This document shows, in pieces, positions 3,135-19,999 of a stretch of 64,000 nt of DNA. Under the pieces are notes generated by a model. The model was not told where the DNA came from. It saw nothing but the letters and a program-made list of their open reading frames with translations, and made no database searches. The stretch's first letter is position 1. Each line of letters opens with the position of its first letter. Origin of the DNA: Eubacteriales bacterium (GTDB lineage: Bacteria; Bacillota; Clostridia; Oscillospirales; CAG-272); the NCBI GenBank assembly GCA_045636465.1, contig JAZTXP010000044.1:628-64627 (forward strand), given 5' to 3'. The position numbers and the translations under genes are program-made.

Positions 3135-3158
3135 TTTTTATAAAGGAGGTACTCATGT

Positions 3159-3401: not shown

Positions 3402-3423
3402 TTAAAAGGAGGTATCAAAACTA

Positions 3424-4482: not shown

Positions 4483-4501
4483 TTAAGGAGGGGAGCAAGA
4501 A

Positions 4502-5071
4502 ATGAGTAGTAACGCAAAAACAATTATTGTCGCTATCATTTCTTTGCTTCTGCTCGTAGGCGCACTTGGACTCATAATTCACTTCACCGGGGGTGGTACC
4601 CACGACTTTGCCACGTTCTACCTTACTTATGGTGATCAGACAATAATGGATACCACTTCCGGCTTTGTTCTTAATCAGTACGAGGGCAATAGGTTTGACG
4701 TACACTATACCTTCGACGAGAGCAAGAAGAACGCTTACGACGTAGAAATTAAAGGAAATGATAAATACTCCTTTACCTATACCGTAGATGGTGAGGAATA
4801 CGAGTTTAACGGCGACACAGACTACACAGGATTCTTTGACGTAGTAGAATACGAAGACTATTTCACAGTAAATGGCTTGTATTCAATCAAGACTATACTT
4901 GTTGAAAGACATAATGGAGCTGAGGTAGAAATACCCGAGAGTGTCCCGGAGCACGCAGAGTTCTTCATTATGACGGTTAAATCAACAACTCAGGATTCCA
5001 AGATCACAATCTATCTGAAGACTGCTCCGATCCTTGACGAGATAGTTCTTCCCGAAGAGATCCTGTTCTAA
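4502..5071 (+). CDS. Single-pass membrane protein, unknown function
   Basis: GGAGG RBS. N-terminal TM segment TIIVAIISLLLLVGALGLIIHF. Confidence 0.55.
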   Translation: MSSNAKTIIVAIISLLLLVGALGLIIHFTGGGTHDFATFYLTYGDQTIMDTTSGFVLNQYEGNRFDVHYTFDESKKNAYDVEIKGNDKYSFTYTVDGEEYEFNGDTDYTGFFDVVEYEDYFTVNGLYSIKTILVERHNGAEVEIPESVPEHAEFFIMTVKSTTQDSKITIYLKTAPILDEIVLPEEILF

Positions 5072-5084
5072 GGGGGAGATGCAT

Positions 5085-7088
5085 ATGAGAACAGTAATAA
5101 CAAAAGCTTTATCGCTTCTCTCAATCGTATGCATCTTATTCTCTCTATTCACGTTAGGCGTTAGTGCCGAAACGGTAAAAAAAGAGGTCGTTACGGACTT
5201 TAGCAAAACTAACGTTCTTGACGACCTCGAGTCCTCAACTGTTAACGGTCAGTTATTTGATATAACAGATTATCCGTATTCAGAGCAGTTGGATATTAAG
5301 CTCATAACTATGGTTGAATATTGCTACTCCTTTGAGTCGGATAATCTCGACCATTACGGTCTATATCTTTACATCTACAATCCAAGAAACCTTACTATTG
5401 ATACAAGCAGCGGTGCTAATAAAATACAAATGGCAACTGCTTACGATAGCAAGGGTGTACCTACAAGGTATGATAAGTTCAATCTTCAATTCTGTAACAC
5501 CGTTGAGTCCGGCAACTACAAAAACCTTTTCTATAAGTTCAAAATAGTTGAAAAGGAGATCAACGGCACTACCTTTTACGATAGAGTTAATTCTAACGGC
5601 AGAAGGTACGATATCACAGGTATTGAGCTTAAGACTAAAGGTGCTACGAACGCTACCGAGTATTTTGTAGGCGGTACGTATATCTTCTCGGGATATGCTA
5701 AAGGCTTCGGTCCTGACAAAGAGGCAGAGTCCAATCTTACTTGTGTGGTAGAGGAGCTTGAAACCTTAAAGCTTTCGGTTCATCATACCAACTACAGAAC
5801 GGGCGTATCCGACAAAGGCGAGGACTACTACAACGAGGTAAACACCGTATATTTCTCAGTACCCGAAAGAGTATTCGAGCAATACGGCAACTTGCAGAAG
5901 ATCCGCGCCGAATGGTGGGAGTACAAGACTAAGATGGCTACTGTCACTTCAAACCAAGACTTCTATAATCAGCTTTTACAGTATGTAGGAACTGACGTAG
6001 GACAGTATAGTTCAAGCGTACCCGTCAAAATCTATTCGGGTTATGACGGAAGAGCATCCACAGGACCGGGCATTCCAACGTATCACGATTATCATTGGGT
6101 GTATAACGTAAATCTTGACACACAATATACATCCTTCGGTTCTATCTTTTCTGTTAGTAGTACAGATAAGCAATCAACAATTATGCCTTATGCTTTCTAT
6201 GCACCTGTTACAGACGTGGGTGGAGTCTTTGACTTTCTATCCTCAGATCCGGTTGCAGGTAGTGTATCAAGCAGCGTAGTTAGAGATTGGATATATAACT
6301 ATTCAAATAGTTTAGGACACGGCTACGTTGATTGCAACGGCAGACAGTTAAGCAAGGACTTGTTCGAGGATAGTGTTGACTCCGGTAGAACTATGGGCTA
6401 CAACGATAAGACCATAGACATGGGGGACACCTTCGATTTACTTAGCTATGACAGTAATCACTCTTGGTGGGAAAAACTATGGGACTATGGATTTTCGTGG
6501 CCCACAACAGACGAACAACACAAGGGAGTAATGCCTATCCATATTCTTGAAGCAGGAGACCTTATTGGCACTAATGCTACCATTTCGCAAAGGCTATTGG
6601 TTAAAGAGGACGACGTGGCGGCATTGAAGGAGTTTTACAAAACCGAAACAGCCAACGGTAATAGGGTTGTAATATTCCGTTTTGCAAGCACCGAGTATTA
6701 TTGCGCCCCGGCATTCACTTCGGCAGGCAGTAATATGGTAAGCTGCGATACATACGTAGCACAGCAGACGGTATTCTTCGACTTTGACATCATAGAGCTT
6801 ACCTTCAACAATGACGGTGCATACAGAGTTATTCCCGTTGTTTCAAGCCCTATAGATATAGTCAATGAATTCCAGCCACCGCCCGAGGAAGAACTTTTCG
6901 GCAACACCTCAGCCTTTTGGATGATAATTATAGCCATCATTATGCTTGTAATTATTATCATCATAGGACAGCCGGCACTTAACCTTCTTGTAGAACTTCT
7001 TATATGGATAGTGATGCTACCCATAAGGCTTATACAAGCCATAATTGACCTAATAACAGGAGGTGGGGATATCCCACCTGACGTATAG
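5085..7088 (+). CDS. Large secreted protein with a C-terminal membrane anchor (candidate adsorption / receptor-binding protein)
   Basis: Signal-peptide-like N-terminus ending GVSA/ET. The C-terminal 60 aa are strongly hydrophobic (FWMIIIAIIMLVIIIIIG...LLIWIVMLPI). I prefer the second ATG (5085) because of its spacing to GGGGGAG. Confidence 0.6.
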   Translation: MRTVITKALSLLSIVCILFSLFTLGVSAETVKKEVVTDFSKTNVLDDLESSTVNGQLFDITDYPYSEQLDIKLITMVEYCYSFESDNLDHYGLYLYIYNPRNLTIDTSSGANKIQMATAYDSKGVPTRYDKFNLQFCNTVESGNYKNLFYKFKIVEKEINGTTFYDRVNSNGRRYDITGIELKTKGATNATEYFVGGTYIFSGYAKGFGPDKEAESNLTCVVEELETLKLSVHHTNYRTGVSDKGEDYYNEVNTVYFSVPERVFEQYGNLQKIRAEWWEYKTKMATVTSNQDFYNQLLQYVGTDVGQYSSSVPVKIYSGYDGRASTGPGIPTYHDYHWVYNVNLDTQYTSFGSIFSVSSTDKQSTIMPYAFYAPVTDVGGVFDFLSSDPVAGSVSSSVVRDWIYNYSNSLGHGYVDCNGRQLSKDLFEDSVDSGRTMGYNDKTIDMGDTFDLLSYDSNHSWWEKLWDYGFSWPTTDEQHKGVMPIHILEAGDLIGTNATISQRLLVKEDDVAALKEFYKTETANGNRVVIFRFASTEYYCAPAFTSAGSNMVSCDTYVAQQTVFFDFDIIELTFNNDGAYRVIPVVSSPIDIVNEFQPPPEEELFGNTSAFWMIIIAIIMLVIIIIIGQPALNLLVELLIWIVMLPIRLIQAIIDLITGGGDIPPDV

Positions 7089-7098
7089 AGGAGGAAAA

Positions 7099-7194
7099 AT
7101 GAAAACGATTAAGAGAATTATTGCAGTATTTCTCCTATTCGTGCTTCTCTGGGTGGTCGGTTATCTGATCTTTACAGGTAACCGATTACCTTAA
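7099..7194 (+). CDS. 31-aa single-TM peptide (MKTIKRIIAVFLLFVLLWVVGYLIFTGNRLP), candidate minor or major coat-like peptide
   Basis: Not in the ORF track because it is under 60 aa. GAGGAGG lies 5 nt upstream. It fills the gap between two genes exactly. Confidence 0.45.
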   Translation: MKTIKRIIAVFLLFVLLWVVGYLIFTGNRLP

Positions 7195-7213
7195 AGCAGA
7201 GAGGAGGAATGTT

Positions 7214-9346
7214 ATGAAAGCAAAAATAGACGTTAAAAAGATGATTTGTATTATTGCTTCGGTGATTTTTACAATTTTCTTCATATACCTTGCCATATCC
7301 CACTTCAGTAATTCTTATCTAAGACTTGGAGAGACATTCGGTGACCTTTGGAACTCAATGAAATACTATTTCTTTGAGATATTCGAGATGGATCACGATA
7401 CGGTCGCCACAGTCAAAGATTATTCAGAGATTATGAAGTGGGATGTTTCTATTCCCGAGACTCCCGAAGATGCAAAGGTTGATATAGATAACTATATGAA
7501 TCTGCTTGTAGATAAAGAAAACCTTAACTATTACAACTACACCGTAGGAGTAAAGATAGGAGATTTTGCGAGGCTATTACTAATTTTGCTCCCGTTTGGA
7601 GTATTACTTGTAATTTTGATTAAGATGCTTTATCTGAGACCTAACCACAAGCATGGCAAGGAAACAATGCCGCTTATAGTGTTTAAGACTATAACAAAAT
7701 ATACATATCACCCGGTAAAACGAGTGATTTTAGGGTATTGGAGCTTCTTACAGGAAAACAGAAACATACTAAACCTATGGCTTATAATTTGGCTTATGAA
7801 CCTGAACCTTATGAGCATTATTGTAGCCTTCGTTGCTTACTATCTCTACTTCTCGGTAAGCTGCGATATTTTAGGCTTATACGGTCAGTTGGTAAAGCTA
7901 ATACTCGACCTTGAGGTAGCAGTTAAAACGGTGCCACTCTACATATTTCTTCCGTTCCTTTGGGTAATGTTTGAGAATTTCAGACGGACAATAGCCGCCG
8001 GTATTCTTAATCACTTTGAAATGAAGAATAGAGGCTTTATTAACTCACTCCCCATTGTGTCTATGACCTGCGGCAGTATGGGTAAGAAGAAAACAACGCT
8101 TATTACAGATATGGCTCTATCCCAAGAGGTAATGTTCAGACAAAAAGCGTACGAGCTACTAAAGGTAAACGATATGCGCTTTCCCAACTTCCCTTGGATA
8201 TGCTTTGAGTTAGACCTTCGTACTGCTATGGATTACGGACAAGTCTATAATTTAGCCACCGTAAGAGAATGGGTTGAGAAGAAGCGAGCAAGATACGAAA
8301 AGCATGGTGATCCAAAGAAAAGACTCTACGGATATGACGTTCAGAGGTACGGTGAATGGTATGACGATAACCTCAAAATATGGCATATTTATGACGTGCT
8401 ATATAACTATGCACAGTTATACTTTATCTACGTTATAGAATCCTCGCTTATTGTTTCAAACTATTCCATAAGGACGGATAACGAGCTAATTGATGCAGGT
8501 AATTTTCCCAAATGGGCTTGCGATTTCTTCCCGGAGTTCACCAACGATGAAGGACGCTATTCCCATATCCTTGACTTTGACGTTCTCAGGCTCGGCAAGA
8601 AGGTTATTGAGAACAACCCCAACGCAGGCAGCTTTGAGTTCGGTGTAGTAGTAATATCCGAGGTAGGTAAAGAGCGAGGTAATAACCTTGAGAATAGAGA
8701 GATTAAACGGAATACCGATCAGACAAATCAGAAAAACGACCTTTTCAACTCTTGGCTTAAGATGTGTAGGCATTCTGCGACCGTAGATAACTATCCCTTC
8801 ATTAAGGTATTTACTGACGAGCAAAGACCTGAAAGCTGGGGTGCAGATGCAAGAGATCTCTGCGACATCCTCTACATAGAATCTAACGGCAAACAGAAGC
8901 TTGCCATGCCTTTCTATACCATAGAGGAAATGCTTGTGGAATGGGCTTTCAAGGGCTTTATTAACCTTTATTATATGATGCGTTATCTTCGTGGAGATAC
9001 TACGCTTTTCATATACGTATTAAAGCTCATAACCTCTTGGCTCTACCAAAGGAACGCAGGACTTTACAACCGCTTTGGATACTGTCTTACACATATAGCA
9101 AAAGAGCGAGGAACGATGGATGGCGAGGCTGAAAAGAAGAAATATTACGTAATTAACAAGAAGATATACAGTAGAAGATTTACAACAGACTGCTTTAGCG
9201 ATTACTTTAATGAACTTGCGAGAAAATCTCATATAGGACTTAACGATTATATTGAATACGAAACCGAACGAGCGAGTGTAGAGGAACTTAAAATGCAGAA
9301 CAGCTATTTTATTAACGCACTATATTCAAACGCAGGCTCTAACTGA
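7214..9346 (+). CDS. Polytopic membrane protein with a C-terminal deviant P-loop NTPase-like domain (candidate assembly/extrusion ATPase, Zot/pI-like in function)
   Basis: About five hydrophobic helices lie in residues 1-255. They are followed by GSMGKKKTT (nt 8072-8098), a Walker-B-like VVVISE, and MCRHS...VFTDEQ, which resembles the HRH...TQ segment of Zot-family ATPases. Confidence 0.45.
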   Translation: MKAKIDVKKMICIIASVIFTIFFIYLAISHFSNSYLRLGETFGDLWNSMKYYFFEIFEMDHDTVATVKDYSEIMKWDVSIPETPEDAKVDIDNYMNLLVDKENLNYYNYTVGVKIGDFARLLLILLPFGVLLVILIKMLYLRPNHKHGKETMPLIVFKTITKYTYHPVKRVILGYWSFLQENRNILNLWLIIWLMNLNLMSIIVAFVAYYLYFSVSCDILGLYGQLVKLILDLEVAVKTVPLYIFLPFLWVMFENFRRTIAAGILNHFEMKNRGFINSLPIVSMTCGSMGKKKTTLITDMALSQEVMFRQKAYELLKVNDMRFPNFPWICFELDLRTAMDYGQVYNLATVREWVEKKRARYEKHGDPKKRLYGYDVQRYGEWYDDNLKIWHIYDVLYNYAQLYFIYVIESSLIVSNYSIRTDNELIDAGNFPKWACDFFPEFTNDEGRYSHILDFDVLRLGKKVIENNPNAGSFEFGVVVISEVGKERGNNLENREIKRNTDQTNQKNDLFNSWLKMCRHSATVDNYPFIKVFTDEQRPESWGADARDLCDILYIESNGKQKLAMPFYTIEEMLVEWAFKGFINLYYMMRYLRGDTTLFIYVLKLITSWLYQRNAGLYNRFGYCLTHIAKERGTMDGEAEKKKYYVINKKIYSRRFTTDCFSDYFNELARKSHIGLNDYIEYETERASVEELKMQNSYFINALYSNAGSN

Positions 9347-9390
9347 CGGCGTTACGGTTAAATCCAAAGGTCTGCGTAAAAAGGAGGTAT

Positions 9391-10464
9391 ATGGCTTATG
9401 CCGAAGCGAAGGTCTATTTTGATGGGAGTCACTATATAGCGATACCCCACACAACAAGACCATCAAAAGCAAGATGCTCACCATTGGAAGAAAGAGTTGA
9501 GGTTAAAGCCGACACTCTTAAAGACAAATTTATTGAAAATGCGACAGAAAGCACGGCCCCTTTACCGGGGTACGTGCCTTTTGAGCTGGAAGAAATTGAA
9601 GTTGATGATATTGAAGATGTTTTTGGAGCATTTGAAAATAATGAAACTGATGAATCTGATAATAACGCCCCCGAATCCCCTTCACCAAGATTTGCTACTA
9701 AAAAAGAAATTTTTGAAGAGCATTACAAAGAGTGTTGTCATATGCGAAGGCACGAACGCAAAAAGGCTTTGATAGAAAGGATGCGTCCGTATTTTGATAC
9801 GGAGGAAAAAACACGACTTTACGTTACTGTCAACATTGAGCGAAAACTGCGTAATCTTATTTGCAGAAGAATAAGGCTTTCAAGGAAGGCAAATCTACAA
9901 GAGTTCAATTATTTCTGCACGTTTACTTACAATGATAAACTCCACGACGAAGAAAGCTTTAAGAGAAAGCTAAGACATACCATCTCGAATTTCAGCAAAA
10001 GAAAAGCGTGGAAATACATAGGTGTATGGGAACGCTCTCCCGAAAAGAAACGCCTTCATTTTCACGGTCTATTTTATATTCCTGATGGCACGATGCCGGG
10101 CATTTTAATTCAAAAAGAAGATTATAATTTTAATACCAGAAGGCGACAGATAACCAATCAAAACACCTATTTTAACGAAAAGTTTGGTAGGTCAGACTTT
10201 GAGAGTATTGACGAACCGAGTCGAAAAGGTACAGCATTAGCGTATATAATCAAGTATATTGAAAAAACAGGAGAGAAAATCGTTTACTCTAAAGGACTGC
10301 CTCAATTTTTCATCTCAGATATTCTCGAAAGTGATGTTGTAACTACCATAGGATCAGAAGATACAAAGCTGTTATTATTTGATGATTTCAGCTGCATTGA
10401 CGAGGGGTGCTATATAGGTGTCGTAAGCTCTGACGTGATAGAGCAACTTCGTAAAGCCAACTAA
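9391..10464 (+). CDS. Rolling-circle replication initiator (HUH endonuclease, two-tyrosine phiX174-A-like type)
   Basis: Motifs in canonical order: FCTFTY (I), RLHFHGLFYI (HUH, II), AYIIKYIEK (III, Y285 and Y289 at nt 10243 and 10255). Compare the phiX174 A protein motif YVAKYVNK. Confidence 0.75.
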   Translation: MAYAEAKVYFDGSHYIAIPHTTRPSKARCSPLEERVEVKADTLKDKFIENATESTAPLPGYVPFELEEIEVDDIEDVFGAFENNETDESDNNAPESPSPRFATKKEIFEEHYKECCHMRRHERKKALIERMRPYFDTEEKTRLYVTVNIERKLRNLICRRIRLSRKANLQEFNYFCTFTYNDKLHDEESFKRKLRHTISNFSKRKAWKYIGVWERSPEKKRLHFHGLFYIPDGTMPGILIQKEDYNFNTRRRQITNQNTYFNEKFGRSDFESIDEPSRKGTALAYIIKYIEKTGEKIVYSKGLPQFFISDILESDVVTTIGSEDTKLLLFDDFSCIDEGCYIGVVSSDVIEQLRKAN

Positions 10465-10532
10465 AAATCAAAAATTACATAAGGGCTCAAACAAAGGTTT
10501 TAACAACGCAACTTTTAACCGACAGAAGAAAC

Positions 10533-10572
10533 AACGGGCGAGTCGGCAAGCGGTTTAGCGCCGCCGCCCGTT
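10533..10572 (+). terminator. GC-rich hairpin (aacgggcg / cgcccgtt, 24-nt loop) followed by a T-rich tract. Possible rep terminator or ori-associated structure.
   Basis: Read directly. It lies 70 nt downstream of the rep stop codon. Confidence 0.35.
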
Positions 10573-10618
10573 CTTTGTCGGTATTGCGTTTCCTTTGTTC
10601 CGTTTGTTTTTGTTTTTT

Positions 10619-10681
10619 GGGCGTGTGCTTGGCTCGGCGGAGCGCAGCGACTCCGACTTGTATCAAGACAAGCACACGCCC
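10619..10681. promoter_or_regulatory. Candidate plus-strand origin: 13-bp perfect GC-rich stem (gggcgtgtgcttg / caagcacacgccc) with a 37-nt loop containing ACTTG/TATCAAG
   Basis: The stem was verified base by base. It is markedly GC-rich in an AT-rich locus. It lies directly between rep and the iterons, the usual RCR ori layout. Confidence 0.5.
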
Positions 10682-10699
10682 TGTAGTCACACACCTAAC

Positions 10700-10732
10700 T
10701 TTACCCAAACTTTTCCCCAACTTTACCCAAAC
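10700..10732 (+). repeat. Right iteron array: tttacccaaac, ttttccccaac, tttacccaaac (3 x 11 bp)
   Basis: Read directly. It sits 19 nt downstream of the GC-rich hairpin and is an inverted copy of 665-697. Confidence 0.75.
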
Positions 10733-10783
10733 TGTAACTGACATAAAAAAAGGGAGAGCTTTTTACACTCTCCCTATCAAGTA

Positions 10784-11098
10784 TTACGTTGTAAATAGAC
10801 CATAGATTTTATCGTATAGCGTAATCGCTTTACAAGGTCGCTCTTGATATGTCATTTCCTGTATTTCGGGTTTACCTTTATCAATTGCACGAAGCATTAT
10901 TTTGTTCGATAACTCTTTAAGTGTCGGGAAGGTGCTTTCGATAATGTTCTCATTAGCACCGACTTCAAGTATCTTGAAGCCTTTTTGCACGAGGTATGAG
11001 CTGAACTGCCAAAGCTTCTCAAACATACCGTTTGAGTCAAGTATCACCGATATATCTTTTTCTGGGTGATACGCTGTAATTCTAAAGTAATTTGCCAT
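10784..11098 (-). CDS. Hypothetical protein (104 aa), last gene of the minus-strand accessory operon
   Basis: AGGAGG RBS 7 nt upstream. No motif recognised. Confidence 0.5.
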   Translation of the reverse strand: MANYFRITAYHPEKDISVILDSNGMFEKLWQFSSYLVQKGFKILEVGANENIIESTFPTLKELSNKIMLRAIDKGKPEIQEMTYQERPCKAITLYDKIYGLFTT

Positions 11099-11111
11099 TT
11101 GTAAGTCCTCC

Positions 11112-12425
11112 TTATGCGGCTATTTTCTTTAACTGCCTTTTTGCGTATGGCAGCCATTTGGTGTTTATGTATGTAGTAATGTCATCTGCCGGCTTTGTAT
11201 TGCCGTTTGCATAACATTGTAGTATCTTCTTTGATCTCAACGAGTATTCCATAGTAACAAGTGGAACGTCTGGTGCGTCTGCACTACGAATAAAGAATAT
11301 AAGCGTTTCTTCACGAGCGAATTTTTGCTCATATCCCATTCTTCCGACACAGTGGTGTAATGCTTCACCTTCAGCCTTAAGCTCCGCCGGACTCTTTGCT
11401 ATGATAACAAGATAAGCAGTATTTTTGTCCTTTTGCATAGGCAGATACTTTTCTGCAACAGCATTAAACTTTTCGTAAAACTCAGCACGTTCCTTTTTAT
11501 CGTTTTCGATCCTTAATGCGTTGGCTTCATCAACACGAATGTCGTGCCAATGCATAAAATCATGTGGATAACGATTTTTAGGCTCGTCCATATTCAAGCC
11601 GAGATATATACAAGCCTTTGCGTAGTCAAGATATAATCTATGCGACAGTTTTTTACTGCGGATATATTCAAAGTATTTCTTGTAATCACCCTTAATGACG
11701 TCACGAATAGGCTTAAAATCTTTCTCTCGACAGAAGCATTTTTTCTCTTGCTCGAATTTTTGTGTTTCGTCAAGAGGTGTACCTCTGCGATAGGATGCGA
11801 GGATTGTGGAAACGTAATAGTAATTTCTTTTTAGTTCATCACGGTTACGGGCAATCCATTTTCTGAACTTCTTATCCTTGCCGAGCTTTTGGAGAAGTTG
11901 TATACTATCTGCATATCTTTCAAGACCGAGCTTAACAACATATTCAACCTGCGGATATTTATTATAGATGCGAAGATATTTGAGAATATCTAAGTATGGA
12001 TACTGCTCCCAAGCGGCATATTTGTATTCCGGTAATTTTGCAAGGTATTCTTTATTTACTAAGGGAGCCCATGGATCAAAGTATTTATCATAGTTCCACC
12101 CCCATTCTTTATCTTCATACCATCTCGGAGTTTTTGAAAGTCCTTCTTCATACCAACCTACAGAAAGCGTCCCCATAAAGTGTCGGCACAGGTCTTTTAC
12201 AAAGCATATATCCGAGTCAATGCCGTGTATAGCAACCTGTTTGTAATGCCAATCGTTTCTGTTGTTTCTGACAGCTACTGTAACTTTAACAAGCTCACCG
12301 TCATTTTTAGTAAGATATGAATAAAATCTTACTTGCTTTGTAGGTTTTTTTACTTGCTGATTATCCAGCTTTTTGATCTTTTCAACTATATATTTAGGAA
12401 CGGGCTTAATCTTTTCCATCTTCAT
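11112..12425 (-). CDS. PcfJ-like protein
   Basis: The C-terminal EGEALHHCVGRMGYEQKF...LIFFIRS...VTMEYSL...ILQCYANGN matches the PcfJ-domain signature. TAATG overlap with the upstream PcfK-like gene, as in pCF10-type pairs. Confidence 0.65.
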   Translation of the reverse strand: MKMEKIKPVPKYIVEKIKKLDNQQVKKPTKQVRFYSYLTKNDGELVKVTVAVRNNRNDWHYKQVAIHGIDSDICFVKDLCRHFMGTLSVGWYEEGLSKTPRWYEDKEWGWNYDKYFDPWAPLVNKEYLAKLPEYKYAAWEQYPYLDILKYLRIYNKYPQVEYVVKLGLERYADSIQLLQKLGKDKKFRKWIARNRDELKRNYYYVSTILASYRRGTPLDETQKFEQEKKCFCREKDFKPIRDVIKGDYKKYFEYIRSKKLSHRLYLDYAKACIYLGLNMDEPKNRYPHDFMHWHDIRVDEANALRIENDKKERAEFYEKFNAVAEKYLPMQKDKNTAYLVIIAKSPAELKAEGEALHHCVGRMGYEQKFAREETLIFFIRSADAPDVPLVTMEYSLRSKKILQCYANGNTKPADDITTYINTKWLPYAKRQLKKIAA

Positions 12426-13417
12426 TACAATCTCACCTCCAAGTCATTACCAAACAATCCTGATATAGCAGCGATAAGCTCTTTTTCTTCACGCTTACGC
12501 TTTTCGTCAATGCTTTCATTTTTGCTTTCTTCTTCGGGCATTTCAATTACTTCTCCCGTTTCTATATTTACAGTACCTTTAACCGCGGATTTTACAGTAA
12601 GGTCATCGTTTTCTGCTATAATCAAGGTCAAGCCCTTATCGGTCAACTTATCGTAATAAACGTCTGCTCTATGATAGGGGAATCCAACCATCGGGACTCT
12701 GTGTTTTAGTCCCATATCACGACTTGTAAGAGTAAGCTCTATAAGTTCGCTTACTTGTACTGCGCCATAACCGAACACTTCATAAAAATCTCCAATACGC
12801 ATACAAACCACGTAATCGGGATATTGATTCTGAATAGCCATATATTTTTGGAACAGCGGCGAGCCTTTTGGATCTTCTTCTACGACCACCTCTACCGGCT
12901 CTGCTATGGGTTCTTCAACTACCGTTTCAATAGTTTCTTCAACGACTTCTTTAACCGTTTCTTCCGTATCATTAACAACGGGAGTATCGTTTGAAAAATC
13001 AAAGAGCGATAACTGTTCCGACTCCGGCTTTTTAGCTACGGGCGGTGTATATGTAGTTGTAAGTGTTGTAGTTGTTTTCTTAACAACAGGCTTCGGTGCT
13101 TTATACTCGCTGCCGTCCTCGTTGTAGAGCATACCAATGATGCTTTCTTCCTCGAAATAGTGGATAGCCCAACCGAAAACAACGTCGCTTCTGACACAAG
13201 CCGCTGAAGCACCTTTTTCTGCTTGCTTTCTTGCTTCATCTGTTGCATATTTCATAAAGCCATCAAGCGTTTTTTTGTTGATAAGAGTTTTACCGTCTTT
13301 TTCAATATGGACACCGTTATTTATCTTTTCTGCAAGCGTTTCACTTGCATTTTCTTCAAGATATTTCTTAATAAGTTCTTGTTCTGTACCTTTTGCGGTG
13401 AGATTTAATGTAATCAT
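12425..13417 (-). CDS. Fusion protein: PcfK/AcrIIA9-like N-terminal domain, acidic T/V/E-rich linker with a QLSLF beta-clamp-binding motif, and MutS domain I (mismatch-binding domain)
   Basis: N-terminus: LIKKYLEENASE...ACVRSDVVFGWAIHYFEEESI (PcfK-like). QLSLF at nt 13001-13015. Residues 185-270 (SPLFQKYMAIQNQYPDYVVCMRIGDFYEVF...VPMVGFPYHRADVYYDKLTDKGLTLIIAE) align colinearly with E. coli MutS [30 protein letters not shown]...[29 protein letters not shown]. Confidence 0.75.
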   Translation of the reverse strand: MITLNLTAKGTEQELIKKYLEENASETLAEKINNGVHIEKDGKTLINKKTLDGFMKYATDEARKQAEKGASAACVRSDVVFGWAIHYFEEESIIGMLYNEDGSEYKAPKPVVKKTTTTLTTTYTPPVAKKPESEQLSLFDFSNDTPVVNDTEETVKEVVEETIETVVEEPIAEPVEVVVEEDPKGSPLFQKYMAIQNQYPDYVVCMRIGDFYEVFGYGAVQVSELIELTLTSRDMGLKHRVPMVGFPYHRADVYYDKLTDKGLTLIIAENDDLTVKSAVKGTVNIETGEVIEMPEEESKNESIDEKRKREEKELIAAISGLFGNDLEVRL

Positions 13418-13720
13418 TTATAAGTCCTCCTTTTTATTGTTTTTCGTAAAAGAACAAAAAGCCCCTTTCTGTTTCCAGAAGGGTACTTCATGCCAGATGC
13501 CATCTCTGAACTCTGACTTCTTTATTGGTATGATAACCCACTCGGGCTTTTTAAGCGGGCGATTAGATAAGGTTGCCAACGACGGAAAGCGTAAATACAT
13601 TTCTTTCATCTCCTTAGCTTCTCTATAAGTGCGAGTAATAAACCGTCTTATGTAGTTTTTACAGCCTTTTTCTTTATAGCAGACCTTATAGCCATACGGA
13701 TTATGTAAATTAGGCTTCAT
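13418..13720 (-). CDS. Small strongly basic hypothetical protein (100 aa)
   Basis: ATGA overlap with the upstream gene. Basic composition within an otherwise acidic operon. Confidence 0.45.
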   Translation of the reverse strand: MKPNLHNPYGYKVCYKEKGCKNYIRRFITRTYREAKEMKEMYLRFPSLATLSNRPLKKPEWVIIPIKKSEFRDGIWHEVPFWKQKGAFCSFTKNNKKEDL

Positions 13721-14253
13721 ACAACACCGTATAACCTTTCTGCCACTCTTGGCAAAGCCGAGTAGAAGTTAGTATTCATAATCGTGTTATGCAGCTCTCG
13801 ATCGTGAGCAAAGTAGTTTCTATCGGCAAACTCATAACCCTTTTTAGTAAGTTTTTTAAGCTCATAGCTGTCCGAACCGTCGTGATGATGTCCAGAAATG
13901 AAAAAATGACCGTTTTCATCATAGAACTTAACAAAGTCCAAATGACGAATACAGTCAAGCAGATCATCTATACTACGAATAAACTTACCACCACGAGAAG
14001 GACCGTCCCACCTACCACACGTTCCTGTAAGCAGGTAACAATCCTTTTCGAGTAAATACTCAAGATCGGCTCTGAAGTCATCCCAATCTCGGCGCTGCTG
14101 TTCTTCCATCTCGTGATAAACTACGCAGTCGGGAATCTCTTCTTCTGATATCCAGCCTTCTTCTTCGGCAAAAGTTTCAAACAGATAATTCTTAACCGAG
14201 TTAAAGCTTTGAACGTCGTTATCATCATAAAATACAGTGGTTTTAGTTTTCAT
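13717..14253 (-). CDS. Hypothetical acidic protein (178 aa)
   Basis: AAAGGAG RBS. No motif recognised. Confidence 0.5.
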   Translation of the reverse strand: MKTKTTVFYDDNDVQSFNSVKNYLFETFAEEEGWISEEEIPDCVVYHEMEEQQRRDWDDFRADLEYLLEKDCYLLTGTCGRWDGPSRGGKFIRSIDDLLDCIRHLDFVKFYDENGHFFISGHHHDGSDSYELKKLTKKGYEFADRNYFAHDRELHNTIMNTNFYSALPRVAERLYGVV

Positions 14254-14268
14254 TTTTATTCTCCTTTC

Positions 14269-14520
14269 TTATAAAATATCTTGCATAGCACTAAGGATTT
14301 CACCTTCTAAGTCAAATTCGTTAAGCTCTTCTTCGATAATTTCCTTAACATAATCTTCTAAGATAGGATCAATATCGACCTTATCAACTTTACTACGAAT
14401 AGCATCGGTGACAAGTCCTTCAATATCAAGTCTATCCAGAGCATTGTCTATAGCTTCTTCAAAATCAAAGCTATCAACAGCTTCGTGTATTTTTCTGCTG
14501 AGTTTTTCTTTGAATGTCAT
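14269..14520 (-). CDS. Small highly acidic hypothetical protein (about 83 aa)
   Basis: The start at the fifth codon (14520) avoids overlap with the upstream stop at 14523. Rich in D and E. Confidence 0.45.
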   Translation of the reverse strand: MTFKEKLSRKIHEAVDSFDFEEAIDNALDRLDIEGLVTDAIRSKVDKVDIDPILEDYVKEIIEEELNEFDLEGEILSAMQDIL

Positions 14521-14522
14521 TT

Positions 14523-15149
14523 TTAGTCCCATCCTTTCTCTTTGAATATCGGGAATATTTCTGCATAATTGTCTGTTGCCAAGGGAGAATTATCTTCAAT
14601 GCTTATTTCATCCCACGCCCACATTCCAACAAGGTCTGAAGAAGAATCATCGCTGTGATAAGTGTAATCTCCACCACCGAGTCCGTTACCTACACAAGTA
14701 AGTAAAGGGAGTGGGTGTAAACACCAGCCTTCACCCATAACGCTGTCGTTATAGTAGTTTGAACAGGTTATGTATTCTTTCTTAGTATGATTTATGAGAT
14801 ATTTTCCCTCAAGCGTAAATTCGGTTGTAGGAATGGCTATTGACGTATCTGGTTCACACCAACATCTCGTGTGATAATGCTTTATTTTCTTTTTCGTGAG
14901 TCCATTGTGAGGCTCAACAAGGTTATCTGCAAATTGGTCTGCATAATCGCCCATCCAAATAATACGAGAGCGTTTTGCATTTTCGTATATACTCTGACAA
15001 ACTGCATTGACAAAGGGGTTATACCACCACGAGTGTTCTGTGAGTTTTGCCATCATATATTCTTCTTTTCCGTCAACGATTATATTGCGGTTATAAACGG
15101 TAAGCTTTCCGTTACCTTCTTTTTTAAGTGCCTTGTAATATTGTCCCAT
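14523..15149 (-). CDS. Hypothetical protein (208 aa)
   Basis: AAAGGAG RBS 7 nt upstream. Contains GNGLGGGDY. Function not recognised. Confidence 0.5.
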   Translation of the reverse strand: MGQYYKALKKEGNGKLTVYNRNIIVDGKEEYMMAKLTEHSWWYNPFVNAVCQSIYENAKRSRIIWMGDYADQFADNLVEPHNGLTKKKIKHYHTRCWCEPDTSIAIPTTEFTLEGKYLINHTKKEYITCSNYYNDSVMGEGWCLHPLPLLTCVGNGLGGGDYTYHSDDSSSDLVGMWAWDEISIEDNSPLATDNYAEIFPIFKEKGWD

Positions 15150-15167
15150 TTTATATCTCCTTTCTGA

Positions 15168-15575
15168 TTAAACAACTCTCATTATGCCTCCACCCATACT
15201 TCTAACACCTATTGTGCCGAACTCTGAGCAGTAGTCATCGTCTTTATTCCAAACGTAAGAAAAAGCGTAATGTATTCCACCTTCTGTATAGCAAAGTTTT
15301 TTCCATTCGCTCTTGTAATTAGTAACTATAAGGAAAGAGTAAAGCTCACCAAACTCTGTAAATTCGTGAGTAATGGCGTAAACGGTGCAGTTGTGTTCTT
15401 TTTCAATTTCCTTCATTTTGTTGTAAAGCTCGGGTTCCTGATCAACCCAAAAGCCGCCGAACATTTCAAAGAAGCATACTTGGTCTTTCTTCTCAAAGCC
15501 GATTATGTAGGGCTTATAAATATCCATCTGCTTCAAAATCTCAATACCTTTTACTTTTCTTTCTTCGTGTGTCAT
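15168..15575 (-). CDS. Hypothetical protein (135 aa)
   Basis: AAGGAG lies 8 nt upstream of the internal ATG at 15575, which I prefer over 15605. Confidence 0.5.
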   Translation of the reverse strand: MTHEERKVKGIEILKQMDIYKPYIIGFEKKDQVCFFEMFGGFWVDQEPELYNKMKEIEKEHNCTVYAITHEFTEFGELYSFLIVTNYKSEWKKLCYTEGGIHYAFSYVWNKDDDYCSEFGTIGVRSMGGGIMRVV

Positions 15576-15591
15576 TTTTAATACTCCTTTT

Positions 15592-16155
15592 TTAATAAAT
15601 TTCAATTAAACCTTCTGAATACTCGGTAATATCACCATCGTATTGGAACGATTCGCCGTATGCCTTGAAGTCGAAATAGTCAAGTATCCAATTTTCAACC
15701 TCATAACCCATATTTTCAAATGTTTCACGACCGTAATCTTCCCAATCGTAGTTTTTATATAGACGGATATCGTCATCCCATCTACTTCCGTATTTATCAA
15801 CACGGTCTTTGAATTCGTTATAGCCTCTGACTTCGATAAAAGCCATCATAACGTCATATTTACCGGGATCGTCTAAAACGTCAGCTTCTTGCAGTAACTC
15901 AAAGAACTCCTGCGGATTAACGTAATCCCAATTAGCAGCTCCCGAGGGGAAGTTATCTACGTCCTGTATGAACAATTCTTCATCCATACCGTCAAGCTCA
16001 AAGCCTTCTGCTTTAAGTTCTTCTTCAATTTCATCCCAATCAGAGTAATCTGCAAGGTCAAGCCATTTAGAACCATAAGCTCTTTCGTTACATTCGTTAT
16101 ATGAGCCCCAAGAGCCGATAACGATTTTTATTTCATTACTTACTGTTGTAAGCAT
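15592..16155 (-). CDS. ardA: ArdA-type antirestriction protein (DNA mimic)
   Basis: The N-terminal IVIGSWGSYNECNERAYGSKWLDL and C-terminal YFDFKAYGESFQYDGDITEYSEGLIEIY match Tn916 Orf18/ArdA (YIANLGKYNEGELVG... and YIDYQAYGRDLDLSGTFISTNHGIFEI). Very acidic. AAGGAGGTG RBS before the ATG at 16155. Confidence 0.75.
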   Translation of the reverse strand: MLTTVSNEIKIVIGSWGSYNECNERAYGSKWLDLADYSDWDEIEEELKAEGFELDGMDEELFIQDVDNFPSGAANWDYVNPQEFFELLQEADVLDDPGKYDVMMAFIEVRGYNEFKDRVDKYGSRWDDDIRLYKNYDWEDYGRETFENMGYEVENWILDYFDFKAYGESFQYDGDITEYSEGLIEIY

Positions 16156-16246
16156 CAAAATCACCTCCTTCCAATTCCAATTTTTCTTCAATTCTGTCTT
16201 TTGCTTCTTCAAGCAATTCTTCTAAATCAATGATAGGCTTTGTCAT
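16136..16246 (-). CDS. Possible 36-aa acidic peptide (MTKPIIDLEELLEEAKDRIEEKLELEGGDFDAYNSK)
   Basis: TAATG coupling to the upstream gene and an AAGGAG RBS. It overlaps the ardA start by about 20 nt. Below the ORF-track size cut-off. Confidence 0.3.
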   Translation of the reverse strand: MTKPIIDLEELLEEAKDRIEEKLELEGGDFDAYNSK

Positions 16247-16479
16247 TACTTTATCTCCTTAAAGTCGTTTATATTGATTTTTGTGTATTCACAACCATAT
16301 TCGAAGTAATAACCGTTTTCGTCCTGGTAGAGATCGTATGTAATAACGGAAATCTTACCTCTATTTGTAACGGCTACGGATATTTCATTTTTAAGCTCGT
16401 TAAGGTCAACGATATTGAAGGTGATCCAAGCTTCACCGTCGTGAATCTTAAATTCGTGTAAATAGAACTTGTTTTTCAT
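16246..16479 (-). CDS. Small hypothetical protein (77 aa)
   Basis: ORF with an RBS in operon context. No motif recognised. Confidence 0.45.
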   Translation of the reverse strand: MKNKFYLHEFKIHDGEAWITFNIVDLNELKNEISVAVTNRGKISVITYDLYQDENGYYFEYGCEYTKININDFKEIK

Positions 16480-16497
16480 TTTTTATATCTCCTTTTC

Positions 16498-16800
16498 TTA
16501 TTCTTCGATGATTTTATACCAGATTTTATAATCAAGTTGAACTTCACGTTTTTCGTAATTATCTTTACCGGTGTCGATATCGATTTCACGGATTTCGTAA
16601 TATCCACCTTGATATTCGTTAGGTCTGTAGGGGATAGGATGACAATCTTTGACACAATCTTCAAAGACTCTGATATACGGTTTGTTATTTTGACTTATAC
16701 AAGCGATAACTAAATCCGTATCGGTTATATAACCGACTCCTTTCTGTTCGATCATTTCATTTTTTTTGTACCTTTTTACTGAGTAATAAACTTTTTTCAT
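16498..16800 (-). CDS. Small hypothetical protein (100 aa), first gene of the minus-strand operon
   Basis: AGGAGG lies 9 nt upstream of the ATG at 16800. The upstream extension to 16848 lacks an RBS. Confidence 0.5.
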   Translation of the reverse strand: MKKVYYSVKRYKKNEMIEQKGVGYITDTDLVIACISQNNKPYIRVFEDCVKDCHPIPYRPNEYQGGYYEIREIDIDTGKDNYEKREVQLDYKIWYKIIEE

Positions 16801-17198
16801 TTTGGAATACCTCCTGATTTTTTTATTTTGCCTTTCGGCAGGGGCCAAGTAGCACTGTTCGGGTATTCATCTTGTCCCTTTGGATTCTTGTGTGAAAATG
16901 TCAACGAGCTGTATTCTGACTCATTTTAATGCTCGATTAAAGAAAAAATATTACGTTTGTATAAAGAAAAAAGCCAAGTATTGCTACTTGACTTGTAAGG
17001 TGATTTATATAGGTTTTCAGTCATATTTTTTCGCGTTGACTTTTTCGAGAACTGTGCTACGATTAGCCACCACGAAAGGCAAAAAAATCAGGCTTCGTAT
17101 AAAGCCCGATAAAAGAAAAAAGCCCATAGCTCCTTGTAAAGAGGCTACGGGCTATATTGATTATTTTGGGTGAATTGTGATGCCGAAATACTCCGCAT

Positions 17199-17238
17199 TA
17201 AAAAACAAAACGAACTCCGATTTCTCAAAGTTCGTTTT
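17199..17238 (-). terminator. Rho-independent terminator downstream of tRNA-Ser
   Basis: 10-bp perfect stem (aaaacgaact / agttcgtttt) followed by a T-run on the minus strand. Confidence 0.7.
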
Positions 17239-17247
17239 ATTTCCTTT

Positions 17248-17339
17248 TGGCGGAGAGAAAGGGATTCGAACCCTTGAAACCGTATTAGGGTTTACACGAT
17301 TTCCAGTCGTGCGCCTTAGACCAACTCGGCCATCTCTCC
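17248..17339 (-). tRNA. tRNA-Ser (anticodon GGA), encoded CCA end, long variable arm
   Basis: I folded the reverse complement GGAGAGATGGCCGAGTTGGTCTAAGGCGCACGACTGGAAATCGTGTAAACCCTAATACGGTTTCAAGGGTTCGAATCCCTTTCTCTCCGCCA by hand. It gives a 7-bp acceptor stem, the anticodon stem CACGA/TCGTG with loop CTGGAAA, a variable stem AAACC/GGTTT and a T arm AAGGG/CCCTT. Confidence 0.9.
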
Positions 17340-17453
17340 TCGCGACTCCTATATTATAGCAGATGATTTCCAAAAAGTCAATAGGAAATTTTAATAAATA
17401 TTAATTTTTTTCAATTTTTTTAATAAAAAGTGATTTTTACTGCAACTTTTATG

Positions 17454-17482
17454 TTGACATTTTTCTACAAATTTCATATAAT
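17454..17482 (+). promoter_or_regulatory. Consensus sigma-A promoter for aspartate kinase (TTGACA, 17 nt, TATAAT)
   Basis: Read directly: TTGACA at 17454-17459 and TATAAT at 17477-17482, about 30 nt upstream of the ATG. Confidence 0.7.
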
Positions 17483-17512
17483 ATAAGTAATCTTTGTTTT
17501 AGGAGATTTTTT

Positions 17513-18829
17513 ATGAATCTGAAAGTGTTGAAATTTGGAGGTAGCTCTCTTGCTGACGCAGATCATTTCCGCCGAGTGGCGAAGATAATTGAAAGCGATC
17601 CCGACAGACGGTACGTCGTTGTATCCGCTCCGGGCAAGCGCTTTAGTGACGACAACAAGGTTACCGACCTTCTTTACAAATGCTATGATATAGCAACAAA
17701 CGAGGGTGACATCTCCGACGTTTTTGAAGAGATCAAGGGGAGATTTAATTCCATTATCAAGGATCTCGGAGTTGATATTGATTTTACTCAGTATTACGAA
17801 AAGATAAAGACCTCACTTTTGCATAGCACTGGACGTGATTATATTGCTTCTCGCGGTGAATACCTGAATGCAATGCTTCTTGCTAAATATTTAGGCTATA
17901 GCTTCATCGATGCGAAAAAGGTTATTTTCTTTAACGAGGACGGTAGTTTTAACGCAGAGAAGACCGACAGTGTGATGCGCGAGTATCTTTCCGAGCATGA
18001 GCGCGCCGTTATACCCGGATTTTACGGCTCTATGCCTAACGGTACTGTTAAGACCTTTACACGCGGTGGCTCCGATATTACCGGCTCTATAGTAGCAAGA
18101 GCAGTTTCGGCATCCCTTTATGAGAACTGGACTGACGTTCCTGGTGTTTTGATGGCAGATCCTCGTGTGATTGATAATCCTAAGGTTATTGACATAATAA
18201 CTTACAAGGAGCTGAGAGAACTGTCATATATGGGCGCAACTGTACTTCATGAGGATGCGATATTCCCGGTAAGATATTCTAAGATCCCAATCAACATTCG
18301 TAGCACCAATGATCCGGAAGGGAAGGGAACCTTCATCGTTCCGTTCACCGATAAGCCCAATAACAGCATCGTCACCGGTATAGCAGGCAAGACAGGCTTT
18401 TCTACAATTACAATAGAAAAGGATATGATGAAATCCGAGCTTGGCTTTGCAAGAAGAATTATGCAGGTTATCGAAGAAAACGGCATTCCATTCGAGCATT
18501 TTCCATCTGGGATTGATACTATGACTCTGGTTGTATCTACCGAACTTCTAGATAAAAAAAGAGGAGATGTTATCGCAGGAATATGCAGAAAGGTAAATCC
18601 CGACAACATATTCGTGGAGGATAACCTATCGCTTATCGCCGTAGTTGGACGAGGAATGATAAAAGCGAAGGGAACTGCCGCAAGGGTATTCACATCGTTG
18701 GCTAATGCTGATATAAACGTAAGGATGATCGATCAGGGCTCAAGCGAGCTTAATATCATAATCGGCGTAGATTCAAACGATTATGTCGCTGCGTTGAATG
18801 CAATTTACAACGAATTTGTAAAAGAGTAA
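17513..18829 (+). CDS. Aspartate kinase
   Basis: The N-terminal KFGGSSLAD...VVVSAPGKRFSDDNKVTDLL and the C-terminal ACT-like repeats are typical of monofunctional aspartokinases. Confidence 0.85.
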   Translation: MNLKVLKFGGSSLADADHFRRVAKIIESDPDRRYVVVSAPGKRFSDDNKVTDLLYKCYDIATNEGDISDVFEEIKGRFNSIIKDLGVDIDFTQYYEKIKTSLLHSTGRDYIASRGEYLNAMLLAKYLGYSFIDAKKVIFFNEDGSFNAEKTDSVMREYLSEHERAVIPGFYGSMPNGTVKTFTRGGSDITGSIVARAVSASLYENWTDVPGVLMADPRVIDNPKVIDIITYKELRELSYMGATVLHEDAIFPVRYSKIPINIRSTNDPEGKGTFIVPFTDKPNNSIVTGIAGKTGFSTITIEKDMMKSELGFARRIMQVIEENGIPFEHFPSGIDTMTLVVSTELLDKKRGDVIAGICRKVNPDNIFVEDNLSLIAVVGRGMIKAKGTAARVFTSLANADINVRMIDQGSSELNIIIGVDSNDYVAALNAIYNEFVKE

Positions 18830-18839
18830 AAAGAGAAGA

Positions 18840-18875
18840 GGAGAGAAAAGCTTTGTGTTGCTCTCTCCCCTTTTT
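18840..18875 (+). terminator. Weak intrinsic terminator after aspartate kinase
   Basis: 7-bp stem ggagaga/tctctcc followed by cctttttg. Confidence 0.4.
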
Positions 18876-19173
18876 GCAGAAATATCGGTTTTGTGGTTGT
18901 ATAATAGTAACCGTGTTGATGAATGGTCGACGCGGGAAGGGAGCTTCTTGATAGCCGGAGTAAAATTCACTCAAAAATATCAGTAACATAGATATAATAT
19001 AGGGCAGAGTAGATATTCCCTTGTGTTTTTGCATGTAAGGCTAAAACTTTCTCCTGTTTTTAATGATTAGAGAATAATAATATTTTCAGGACAGTAAAGT
19101 CACCCCATTTCTGCATTTTTAACGTTTATTCGACTCAAAAAGGTAACTAACAGGCATATTCGGGGATACTTAC

Positions 19174-19203
19174 AATTATACAAAATGGAAATTTTGTATA
19201 ATT
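19174..19203. promoter_or_regulatory. Perfect 13-bp inverted repeat aattatacaaaat-ggaa-attttgtataatt made of extended -10-like TGTATAAT boxes. A third copy lies at 19243-19257.
   Basis: Verified base by base. It lies in an 840-bp ORF-free AT-rich spacer between convergent genes. Confidence 0.45.
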
Positions 19204-19672
19204 TGGGGTAGTTAAAATGGGGTTTTGCTTTATTTTATGTCCATTTTTGTATAATTTTTATTATTTATGTATTTTTTGCTTTATATTTCTGCGATCCGTT
19301 TATTTTGGTTTGTTTTTTCTAAAATCATAATATCCGTATGTGAAAATCAAATTAAATAATTGCGCGATTATGATATGATCATAACATTTTTAAAATTATT
19401 AAAGATAATCTTATTATTATGATTATAATAATACATACCTTTAATTAAATAACTATTTGAGAGCAAAAACGACATAAATAAAGATAATCTATGTATCAAT
19501 CATAAATTCTTCAAAATATCATAATAATAAAATGCTTTAGTTTTTACGTTATAAACGATGTGATATAAAAGTGATATAACTATTGAAAAAATATCAAACT
19601 GTGAAAAATTACGAAATAAGGAATAGGATGAGAAACAGCAGGGCAGTCCTCTTCCCTTCTAAAAATCGCGTT

Positions 19673-19939: not shown

Positions 19940-19999
19940 AAAATTCCCTTTCCAAGTAATTAATGAACTATTAAACTATATGAAAGGTCTTAAACCAAA

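Follow-up and report, generated by a model that had tools for sequence, protein, structure and literature searches.

A PcfK-family protein with an inserted MutS domain I and a sliding-clamp-type motif in gut Clostridia: a candidate mismatch-repair antagonist of mobile elements

Why should an operon of a putative mobile element encode a single MutS domain detached from the rest of MutS? This question is raised by a gene in a 64,000-nt stretch of DNA from Eubacteriales bacterium GCA_045636465.1 (contig JAZTXP010000044.1, 628-64,627), hereafter the window, to which all coordinates refer. A preliminary description of the locus had proposed that positions 12425-13417 encode a PcfK/AcrIIA9-like domain joined to a clamp-binding motif and a MutS domain I, and that the product might act as a mismatch-repair decoy. 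One minus-strand open reading frame (ORF) of 330 amino acids (aa) indeed occupies this interval, preceded by its own Shine-Dalgarno sequence (AAGGAGGA). The product (the fusion protein) is, judged by its domain content, a derived member of the PcfK family. Tentatively, and with some odds against it in our own judgement, we read it as a clamp-tethered, repair-incompetent mismatch binder that would shield element DNA from host MutS and MutL.

An AlphaFold model built on 76 family members contained two confident domains, residues 1-110 and 181-280 (predicted local distance difference test, pLDDT, ~97 each), separated by a disordered linker (~115-180) and followed by a C-terminal helix (303-325). 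The proposed PcfK/AcrIIA9-like character of the N-terminus was borne out by a Pfam search, in which PcfK (PF14058) matched residues 43-97 with E=6e-8 and 33.3 bits, above the gathering cut-off of 27; the match spans only positions 27-77 of the 139 in the profile. The signature sequence of this domain is VVFGWAIHYFEE. Its fold (model pLDDT ~95) found no Foldseek match at E<=0.001 in PDB or BFVD, and a profile search of PDB sequences with the same domain returned low-complexity noise only.

The second domain was readily recognised as MutS domain I (MutS_I). Pfam MutS_I matched residues 187-273 (profile positions 2-88 of 113) with E=9e-21 and 74.6 bits against a cut-off of 20.6, and phmmer against PDB sequences aligned residues 183-281 with residues 8-108 of E. 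coli MutS (E=5e-15). The similarity reported in the preliminary description thus persisted in profile searches, and it extended to structure, since Foldseek superposed the modelled domain on domain I of E. coli MutS at 1.1-1.4 Å over 84-88 residues. Identity was 35% to E. coli MutS and 40-42% to Listeria and Enterococcus MutS. The GDFYE (residues 209-213), LTxR and PMxGxPxH motifs of bacterial MutS (TIGR01070 / PRK05399) are retained, the latter two as LTLTSR and PMVGFPYH. Across 76 diverse fusions D210 and E213 were conserved at 100% and F211 at 99%, while G209, Y212, LTLTxR, PMxGxPYH and Y254, positions common to E. coli MutS, were conserved at 84-100%. The domain is evidently under purifying selection at the residues that MutS uses on DNA.

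Nothing similar to MutS domains II-V was found by Pfam in the fusion protein, where 57 residues remain after domain I. The NCBIfam MutS equivalogs likewise stayed far below their cut-offs (TIGR01070, 85.3 bits against 641.7; PRK05399, 84.6 against 480). Unlike bacterial MutS, the fusion protein therefore has no connector, lever, DNA-clamp, ABC ATPase or dimerisation domain, as had been noted. It should consequently form no ATP-driven sliding clamp and recruit no MutL, in agreement with the earlier proposal that it would not signal to MutL.

Between the two folded domains lies the pentapeptide QLSLF (residues 135-139, nt 13001-13015), carried by the peptide PESEQLSLFDFSND in a region of low model confidence (pLDDT about 50-60). 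It is the exact clamp-binding consensus, as first noted, and the composition of the fusion protein predicts only 5e-5 chance occurrences. The motif had been placed within an acidic linker. Such a linker is present (net charge -13), but QLSLF marks the point where it meets a basic linker (+4), and the surroundings of the motif are not acidic throughout. While the remainder of the linker is variable (23-33% identity only), the motif columns in the 76 fusions read Q in 70/76, S/T/N in 76/76, L/I/M/F in 75/76, F in 75/76 and D in 70/76.

Published data define the clamp motif as QφxLF with the consensus QL[S/D]LF, in which positions 1, 4 and 5 weigh most (bioRxiv 10.64898/2026.05.27.728225). According to the same source, QLSLF is the motif of B. 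subtilis PolC, with a measured K_D of 3.1 µM for B. subtilis DnaN, and in Firmicutes QLSFF is that of MutS and QLDLF that of Pol Y1. The fusion pentapeptide is therefore identical to that of PolC; it keeps positions 1, 4 and 5 and lies in a disordered segment. That MutS itself uses such a motif, as the preliminary description held, is documented for E. coli, whose residues 812-QMSLL-816 constitute a genuine site of clamp interaction (PMC2781695). Three human-gut contigs, presumably bacterial DNA, encode full-length MutS with QMSLFD or QISLLD close to the C-terminus; this motif type is common to MutS and the fusion protein. Reading QLSLF as a clamp-binding motif is well founded by sequence, with the difference from the Firmicutes proteins just named that for PcfK proteins DnaN binding is a prediction.

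To what extent is this architecture conserved? A word-indexed search recovered 120 full-length relatives with an identity of at least 63% from Clostridia metagenome-assembled genomes. An exhaustive search of 50%-identity representatives returned 253 proteins at E<1e-30, and full-length fusions accounted for 79 of the best 150. All 80 loci kept from species-representative genomes were fusions. The survey that the preliminary description had called for thus points to a conserved family. It comprises no fewer than 79 clusters at 50% identity and is present in at least 80 gut Clostridia species. The hosts are uncultured, of human and animal origin, and include Christensenellaceae, Acutalibacteraceae, Eubacteriales, Borkfalkiaceae, Lachnospiraceae, Ruminococcus and Roseburia.

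Several relatives bear on how the fusion arose. Intermediate relatives of 200-260 aa possess the N-domain, the motif, the acidic linker and a C-terminal module, but no MutS_I. This module ([V/I]-D-x-E-T-G-E-[V/I] … aFD.E.l..L..l[F/L]G[D/N].[L/I/V].[V/L/I]R) is the same as that following MutS_I in fusions; by this comparison, MutS_I is an insertion into a PcfK-type scaffold. Median identity to the query was 62% for the N-domain and 45% for MutS_I, and in one lineage (P0096) the N-domain was 95% identical and MutS_I only 53%, a disparity that shows module exchange. MutS_I is inserted in most members; it precedes the PcfK domain in P0171, and P0214 consists of two tandem MutS_I domains with no PcfK domain, possibly because of a truncated gene call. 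That MutS_I and the PcfK scaffold have been combined in different ways speaks for a functional partnership between them.

The N-domain subfamily of the fusions gave no tblastn match in PLSDB plasmids and a single one (MT835493) among phage records. On that record (L001) the fusion module is mixed with apparently chromosomal genes. Three further records considered as stand-alone MutS_I relatives (MT835489, MT835478 and MT835694; L024-L026) were rejected, as they contain ordinary full-length mutS genes of 870-889 aa; these are the source of the gut MutS clamp motifs cited above. All three are filed as 'Bacteriophage sp.' from human faeces, and the full-length mutS suggests the presence of bacterial DNA in that phage collection. 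MutS_I matches on Acinetobacter plasmids were also set aside; they fall in an unannotated stretch beside insertion sequences that looks like a mutS fragment.

The preliminary description was not aware of such a function among leading-region or anti-defence genes; as a claim that there is no precedent, this proved too strong. Iyer et al. 2017 (Iyer, Burroughs, Anand, de Souza and Aravind, J Bacteriol; PMC5512222) described MutS-I domains within "polyvalent" proteins of phages and conjugative elements, called these the only occurrence of the domain outside MutS, and suggested that, after entry, it recognises short stretches of single-stranded DNA in the replicating element. Binding to DNA of an entering or replicating element is a role different from that of a decoy, yet it provides a precedent for a MutS-I that acts on element DNA. 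They found MutS-I together with ArdC-N in ~80% of its occurrences in polyvalent proteins and proposed a comparable action for the two. The fusion protein resembles these proteins in carrying a MutS-derived domain I outside MutS on a Firmicutes mobile element, with a predicted action on element DNA soon after entry. In contrast to the large, multi-domain polyvalent proteins, often equipped with a protease, it is a 330-aa protein of two folded domains on a PcfK scaffold with a clamp motif, and contains neither ArdC-N nor protease. Neither PcfK nor the clamp is mentioned in that study. The two new elements here are the PcfK scaffold and the clamp motif, MutS-I outside MutS being already known. 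Literature searches found no natural MutS inhibitor of phage or plasmid origin and no paper linking PcfK or PcfJ to MutS or to the clamp.

How might the fusion protein act as a mismatch binder? The QLSLFD motif would dock it on DnaN clamps loaded on element DNA during copying, whether after single-stranded entry, in rolling-circle replication or at recombination intermediates. Tethering would raise its local concentration, allowing the lone domain I to insert Phe211 and Glu213 where bases are mispaired or unpaired. Such sites might be found in imperfect hairpins of origins or promoters, in heteroduplex formed with related elements, or at errors of replication. With neither an ATP-driven switch nor MutL recruitment open to it, the protein would cap these sites, in competition with host MutS, which in Firmicutes reaches the clamp by the same Q-x-S-L-F-D motif. 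Element DNA would in this way be protected locally, both against incision by MutS/MutL and against the MutS-dependent rejection of recombination. Firmicutes have no MutH and rely on a MutL endonuclease that the clamp activates, and in B. subtilis MutS needs its clamp motif for most repair; the clamp is therefore a sensible point of attack. A decoy is plausible, and would accord with the strictly conserved Phe-x-Glu, MutS DNA-contact motifs and PolC/MutS-type clamp motif. The genomic context detailed below, an operon that includes ArdA, sits at the edge of an element and is read toward an origin-like region beside an HUH Rep gene, fits an early or counter-defence role.

Is the clamp-type motif peculiar to the fusions? 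We inspected the PcfK prototype of plasmid pCF10, four other Enterococcus/Streptococcus plasmid proteins and eleven viral-contig proteins (L013-L023). In all PcfK-type proteins examined a Qφ[S/D]L[F/L] motif was found, terminal or on a basic flexible linker, with deviations limited to one EIDLF and two NFSIF or QLTIS. The pCF10 prototype (258 aa; NC_006827 17208-17984) ends in …KKKPTKKSETKSERKEVDEQIDLFECV, which contains EQIDLFECV, and the other plasmid proteins end in …DGQVSLFEEA (E. hirae), …EKQLDLFSDLSVEEGEF (Streptococcus), …GEQLSLLDML (E. faecium) and …NNEIDLFEGEDF (E. faecalis ES-2-1). Short viral-contig relatives (120-185 aa) are made up of the N-domain and a basic linker and terminate in sequences such as GQISLFDSLFGGVK, EQLSLFALLG or AQISLFDLF. 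Consistent with this, the 138-position profile phrog_7445 aligns as far as the clamp-type motif, which occupies its C-terminal end.

The fusion protein matched pCF10 PcfK by BLASTP with E=1e-7 over ~40 residues of the core. With pCF10 PcfK and its relatives (PF14058) on plasmids, phages and integrative and conjugative elements (ICEs), it has several features in common: the core motif VVF-x-W…YF, a basic linker of Lys, Thr and Pro ahead of Qφ[S/D]LF, an overlapping pcfJ gene downstream, and ArdA and small early-type genes as neighbours. It differs in that the motif forms the C-terminus of pCF10 PcfK and of the minimal forms, whereas the fusion continues with the acidic linker, MutS domain I and the C-terminal helix module; the N-terminal part of the domain in pCF10 PcfK is also unlike that of the fusion. 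The consensus clamp-binding-type motif is a hallmark of the whole PcfK/AcrIIA9 family and an ancestral feature. Since it is present in PcfK proteins without MutS_I, clamp binding cannot have evolved for an anti-mismatch-repair role.

This and several other points weigh against a mismatch-repair antagonist. The motif, the linker and the coupling to PcfJ are all common to PcfK proteins without MutS_I, which argues that the family has a core function other than mismatch-repair antagonism. Most of the DNA-binding energy of MutS comes from the clamp domains (IV) of the dimer, and an isolated domain I may bind mismatches weakly. One fusion, P0221, has lost Phe-x-Glu from its MutS_I (…ADENSMEIYG…). 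QLSLF is the motif of the replicative polymerase, so high expression could harm replication. Nor is it obvious that an element integrating site-specifically needs to evade mismatch repair. Finally, deleting the C-terminal clamp motif of E. coli MutS leaves the mutation rate unraised (PMC2781695); this motif being dispensable in vivo, competition for the clamp alone need not disable repair.

Hundreds of Enterococcus plasmids carry a member of the PcfK/AcrIIA9 family, as do phages and integrative elements. In its broadest form, our proposal is that the whole family consists of sliding-clamp-docking proteins for which Cas9 inhibition is secondary or indirect, and that the MutS_I subfamily of gut Clostridia represents the first natural mismatch-repair antagonist encoded by mobile elements, a clamp-tethered mismatch cap blocking MutS/MutL. 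Taken as a whole we rate this proposal as rather unlikely. A classical obstacle to recombination between diverged sequences is mismatch repair, an incision system that in Firmicutes is coupled to the sliding clamp. A mismatch binder tethered to the clamp and unable to signal would, if true, be a natural mobile-element inhibitor of mismatch repair, of which none is known as far as the literature shows, and would offer a compact means of suppressing repair locally. The family-level motif may matter more: a common plasmid, phage and ICE gene, now annotated as anti-CRISPR, has a conserved clamp-type motif on a flexible tail in distant members. This provides a directly testable hypothesis for the widespread pcfK-pcfJ pair, including that of the well-studied pCF10.

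The fusion gene belongs to an operon of eleven co-oriented genes, in the order p116, p77, ArdA, p145, p208, p87, p178, p100, fusion, PcfJ and p104 (Table 1). Its stop codon overlaps the start of pcfJ (TAATG), and the pcfJ Shine-Dalgarno sequence lies inside the fusion gene; the arrangement indicates that the two genes are translationally coupled. For the pcfJ product, homology to pCF10 PcfJ extends across 366 residues (E=2e-16), and the pcfK-pcfJ order is the same in pCF10 and other plasmids. Within the 80 species loci, pcfJ was retained downstream in 72, p104 in 60, p145 in 48 and ArdA in 37, absences being often due to contig ends. A promoter scan returned 18 matches against 17.6 expected from shuffled sequence, that is, no excess, and PADLOC reported nothing meaningful for ten proteins of the module and element.

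Table 1. Features of the PcfK/MutS_I locus and its surroundings in the window.
Feature	Position	Strand	Remarks
Convergent element genes	7214..10464	+	710-aa P-loop protein with membrane segments (7214-9346); HUH Rep (9391-10464)
GC-rich structured intergenic region between Rep and operon end, 319 nt	10465..10783	.	Folds as single-stranded DNA, z = -6.4
Terminator-like hairpin and T-run, operon end	10751..10775	-	
104-aa gene (p104) closing the operon	10784..11098	-	Kept in 60/80 related loci
pcfJ, 437 aa	11112..12425	-	Conserved partner gene of the fusion; Pfam PcfJ E=1e-29
PcfK/MutS_I fusion ORF, 330 aa	12425..13417	-	PcfK-type scaffold with inserted MutS domain I; stop codon 12425-12427
C-terminal module	12428..12589	-	V-D/N-x-E-T-G-E-V strand-turn, acidic stretch, helix 303-325 ending ...LFGNDLEVRL
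MutS domain I, residues 185-276	12590..12865	-	GDFYE (Phe-x-Glu) at nt 12779-12793
Acidic Glu/Val/Thr-rich disordered linker, residues 142-184	12866..12994	-	Net charge -13
QLSLFDF, residues 135-141	12995..13015	-	Sliding-clamp-binding-type motif (exact consensus)
Basic Lys/Thr/Pro-rich disordered linker, residues 106-134	13016..13102	-	Net charge +4
Folded N-terminal domain, residues 1-110	13088..13417	-	Pfam PcfK match residues 43-97 (nt 13127-13291)
Upstream genes p100, p178, p87, p208, p145, ArdA (15592-16212), p77, p116	13418..16848	-	Same strand, packed or overlapping
tRNA-Ser(GGA)	17248..17339	-	~400 nt beyond first operon gene

Past the tRNA-Ser gene, chromosomal genes begin at 17513 (aspartate kinase), and this side is likely the edge of an integrated element. 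No repeat of the tRNA-Ser 3' end that could mark an attachment site was found within window positions 1-20000; the other end of the element is probably beyond the window, or else the attachment site is not tRNA-derived. On the opposite side the operon converges on a gene for an HUH rolling-circle Rep, which matches Pfam REP_ORF2-G2P, preceded by that of the 710-aa P-loop protein with several N-terminal membrane segments. The block formed by these two genes recurs in 11/31 loci with enough flank, at a gap of 0.3-5.5 kb from the operon. Besides its strong predicted folding, the intergenic region between Rep and operon contains a 16-nt inverted repeat (10619-10634 / 10666-10681) and three copies of CCNAACTTTNCCCAAACT at 11 nt spacing (10694-10733). 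From these features we infer a candidate replication or transfer origin, either a double-strand origin or an origin of transfer (oriT).

The preliminary description had spoken of leading-region genes. A leading-region position is at most putative here: the window contains no recognisable relaxase or type IV secretion genes, and in one relative (L012) the fusion module is next to the integrase gene on a prophage-like viral contig that also has SSB, DnaD-like and RecE-like genes. Should a nick be made within 10465-10783 and the + strand be transferred, the operon would be the first part to enter and would be transcribed in the direction of the nick, as leading regions are. The geometry of pCF10 is analogous, its pcfK-pcfJ operon converging on the relaxase gene. 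A same-strand, packed array of eleven genes that includes ArdA and is conserved in relatives is a further likeness to leading-region anti-defence arrays; the study of such genes by Samuel et al. 2024 mentions neither MutS, PcfK nor the clamp.

The same surroundings suggest another role. As an establishment or replication adaptor, PcfK together with PcfJ would recruit or retain the host sliding clamp on element DNA for second-strand synthesis or rolling-circle replication, and MutS_I would direct the protein to mismatched or bulged hairpins of a single-stranded origin without antagonising repair. The occurrence of clamp motif and overlapping pcfK-pcfJ throughout the family (pCF10, other Enterococcus and Streptococcus plasmids, phage contigs and clostridial elements) supports this view, as do the identity of the motif with that of PolC and the position of the operon, which abuts the HUH Rep gene and an intergenic region with strong single-stranded folding (z = -6.4) and iteron-like repeats, and resembles that of pCF10 converging on a relaxase gene. 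Recognition of short single-stranded stretches after entry is also what Iyer et al. proposed for MutS-I (PMC5512222). However, PcfJ has no recognisable catalytic or DNA-binding domain: neither the single sequence nor a 7-member profile detected a solved relative, and NCBIfam and PADLOC returned nothing. The N-domain fold is unmatched in PDB and BFVD, and the pair is also present in tailed-phage contigs that replicate as double-stranded DNA (L016). The strictly conserved base-contacting Glu, moreover, suggests MutS-like reading of mismatches rather than generic binding of hairpins. We consider an adaptor of this kind rather unlikely, though the most probable of the alternatives.

Could the protein instead shield DNA? 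In a manner similar to that envisaged for ArdC-N, it would coat irregular or partly single-stranded element DNA against host nucleases, the clamp motif serving for localisation only. The association of MutS-I with ArdC-N in ~80% of its occurrences in polyvalent proteins, where comparable action was proposed (PMC5512222), favours such a role, and so does the presence in the same operon of ArdA, a frequent neighbour of AcrIIA9/PcfK homologues (PMC6739104). Variable defence genes are found just downstream in relatives, where a cargo site between p104 and Rep holds AbiH, Peptidase_U49, SLFN/AlbA_2, GmrSD with type I HsdM, or an SMC-like ATPase with a helicase (L007 12871-15708; L009 12879-14009; L107 14103-18572; L001 16949-22772); in the window this site is empty. 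Nevertheless, one wedge domain per protein is ill-suited to coating DNA, Pfam detects neither ArdC-N nor protease in the fusion protein, and the invariance of Phe-x-Glu indicates specific sites and not general protection. Shielding of this sort therefore appears improbable.

The annotation of the family points to Cas9. AcrIIA9 carries the Pfam PcfK domain, its homologues often adjoin ArdA (PMC6739104), and NCBI names the plasmid PcfK proteins 'Cas9 inhibitor AcrIIA9 family protein'. An anti-CRISPR protein of AcrIIA9 type would use its PcfK domain to inhibit Cas9, with MutS_I adding DNA binding, for example at protospacers or R-loops. Yet an NCBIfam scan of the fusion protein at E<=0.01 gave MutS models only and no AcrIIA9-family model, and homology to pCF10 PcfK is limited to ~40 residues. 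AcrIIA9 homologues are, in addition, rarely accompanied by Aca genes or by type II-A self-targeting spacers (PMC6739104). Inhibition of Cas9 would leave the family-wide clamp motif, the obligatory pcfJ partner and the mismatch-binding domain unexplained, and we regard it as highly improbable for the fusion protein.

Phage proteins that target DnaN are known, and the motif, which is consensus, conserved and exposed and has a second, possibly related counterpart (…LFG…) in the tail, might by analogy block the DnaN cleft in which partner proteins bind and so halt or redirect replication of the host; this is scarcely credible for a family residing on stably maintained plasmids and integrated elements, where arrest of the host would be costly, and it would leave MutS_I and PcfJ unexplained.

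The nature of the element itself was examined through the genes beyond Rep. Window positions 3424-10464, and likewise 5685-13170 of a related locus (L107), contain a conserved block encoding 352-, 189- and 669-aa proteins, the 710-aa P-loop protein and the HUH Rep. This block adjoins the PcfK operon in many Clostridia, and of its proteins only Rep matched Pfam, PHROGs, NCBIfam or PADLOC. A single-sequence scan of viral contigs with the 710-aa protein was empty, and a profile recovered one 84-kb IMG/VR contig with the same block. Window proteins had no entry in the contig index. A mobilisable island, or an unusual phage with rolling-circle replication, are both candidates for the element type. 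Further out, positions 1725-3134 encode a 469-aa protein with a GDSL/SGNH esterase domain and weak matches to phage tail-fibre families; at the equivalent position, another relative (L009) encodes SASA-domain proteins.

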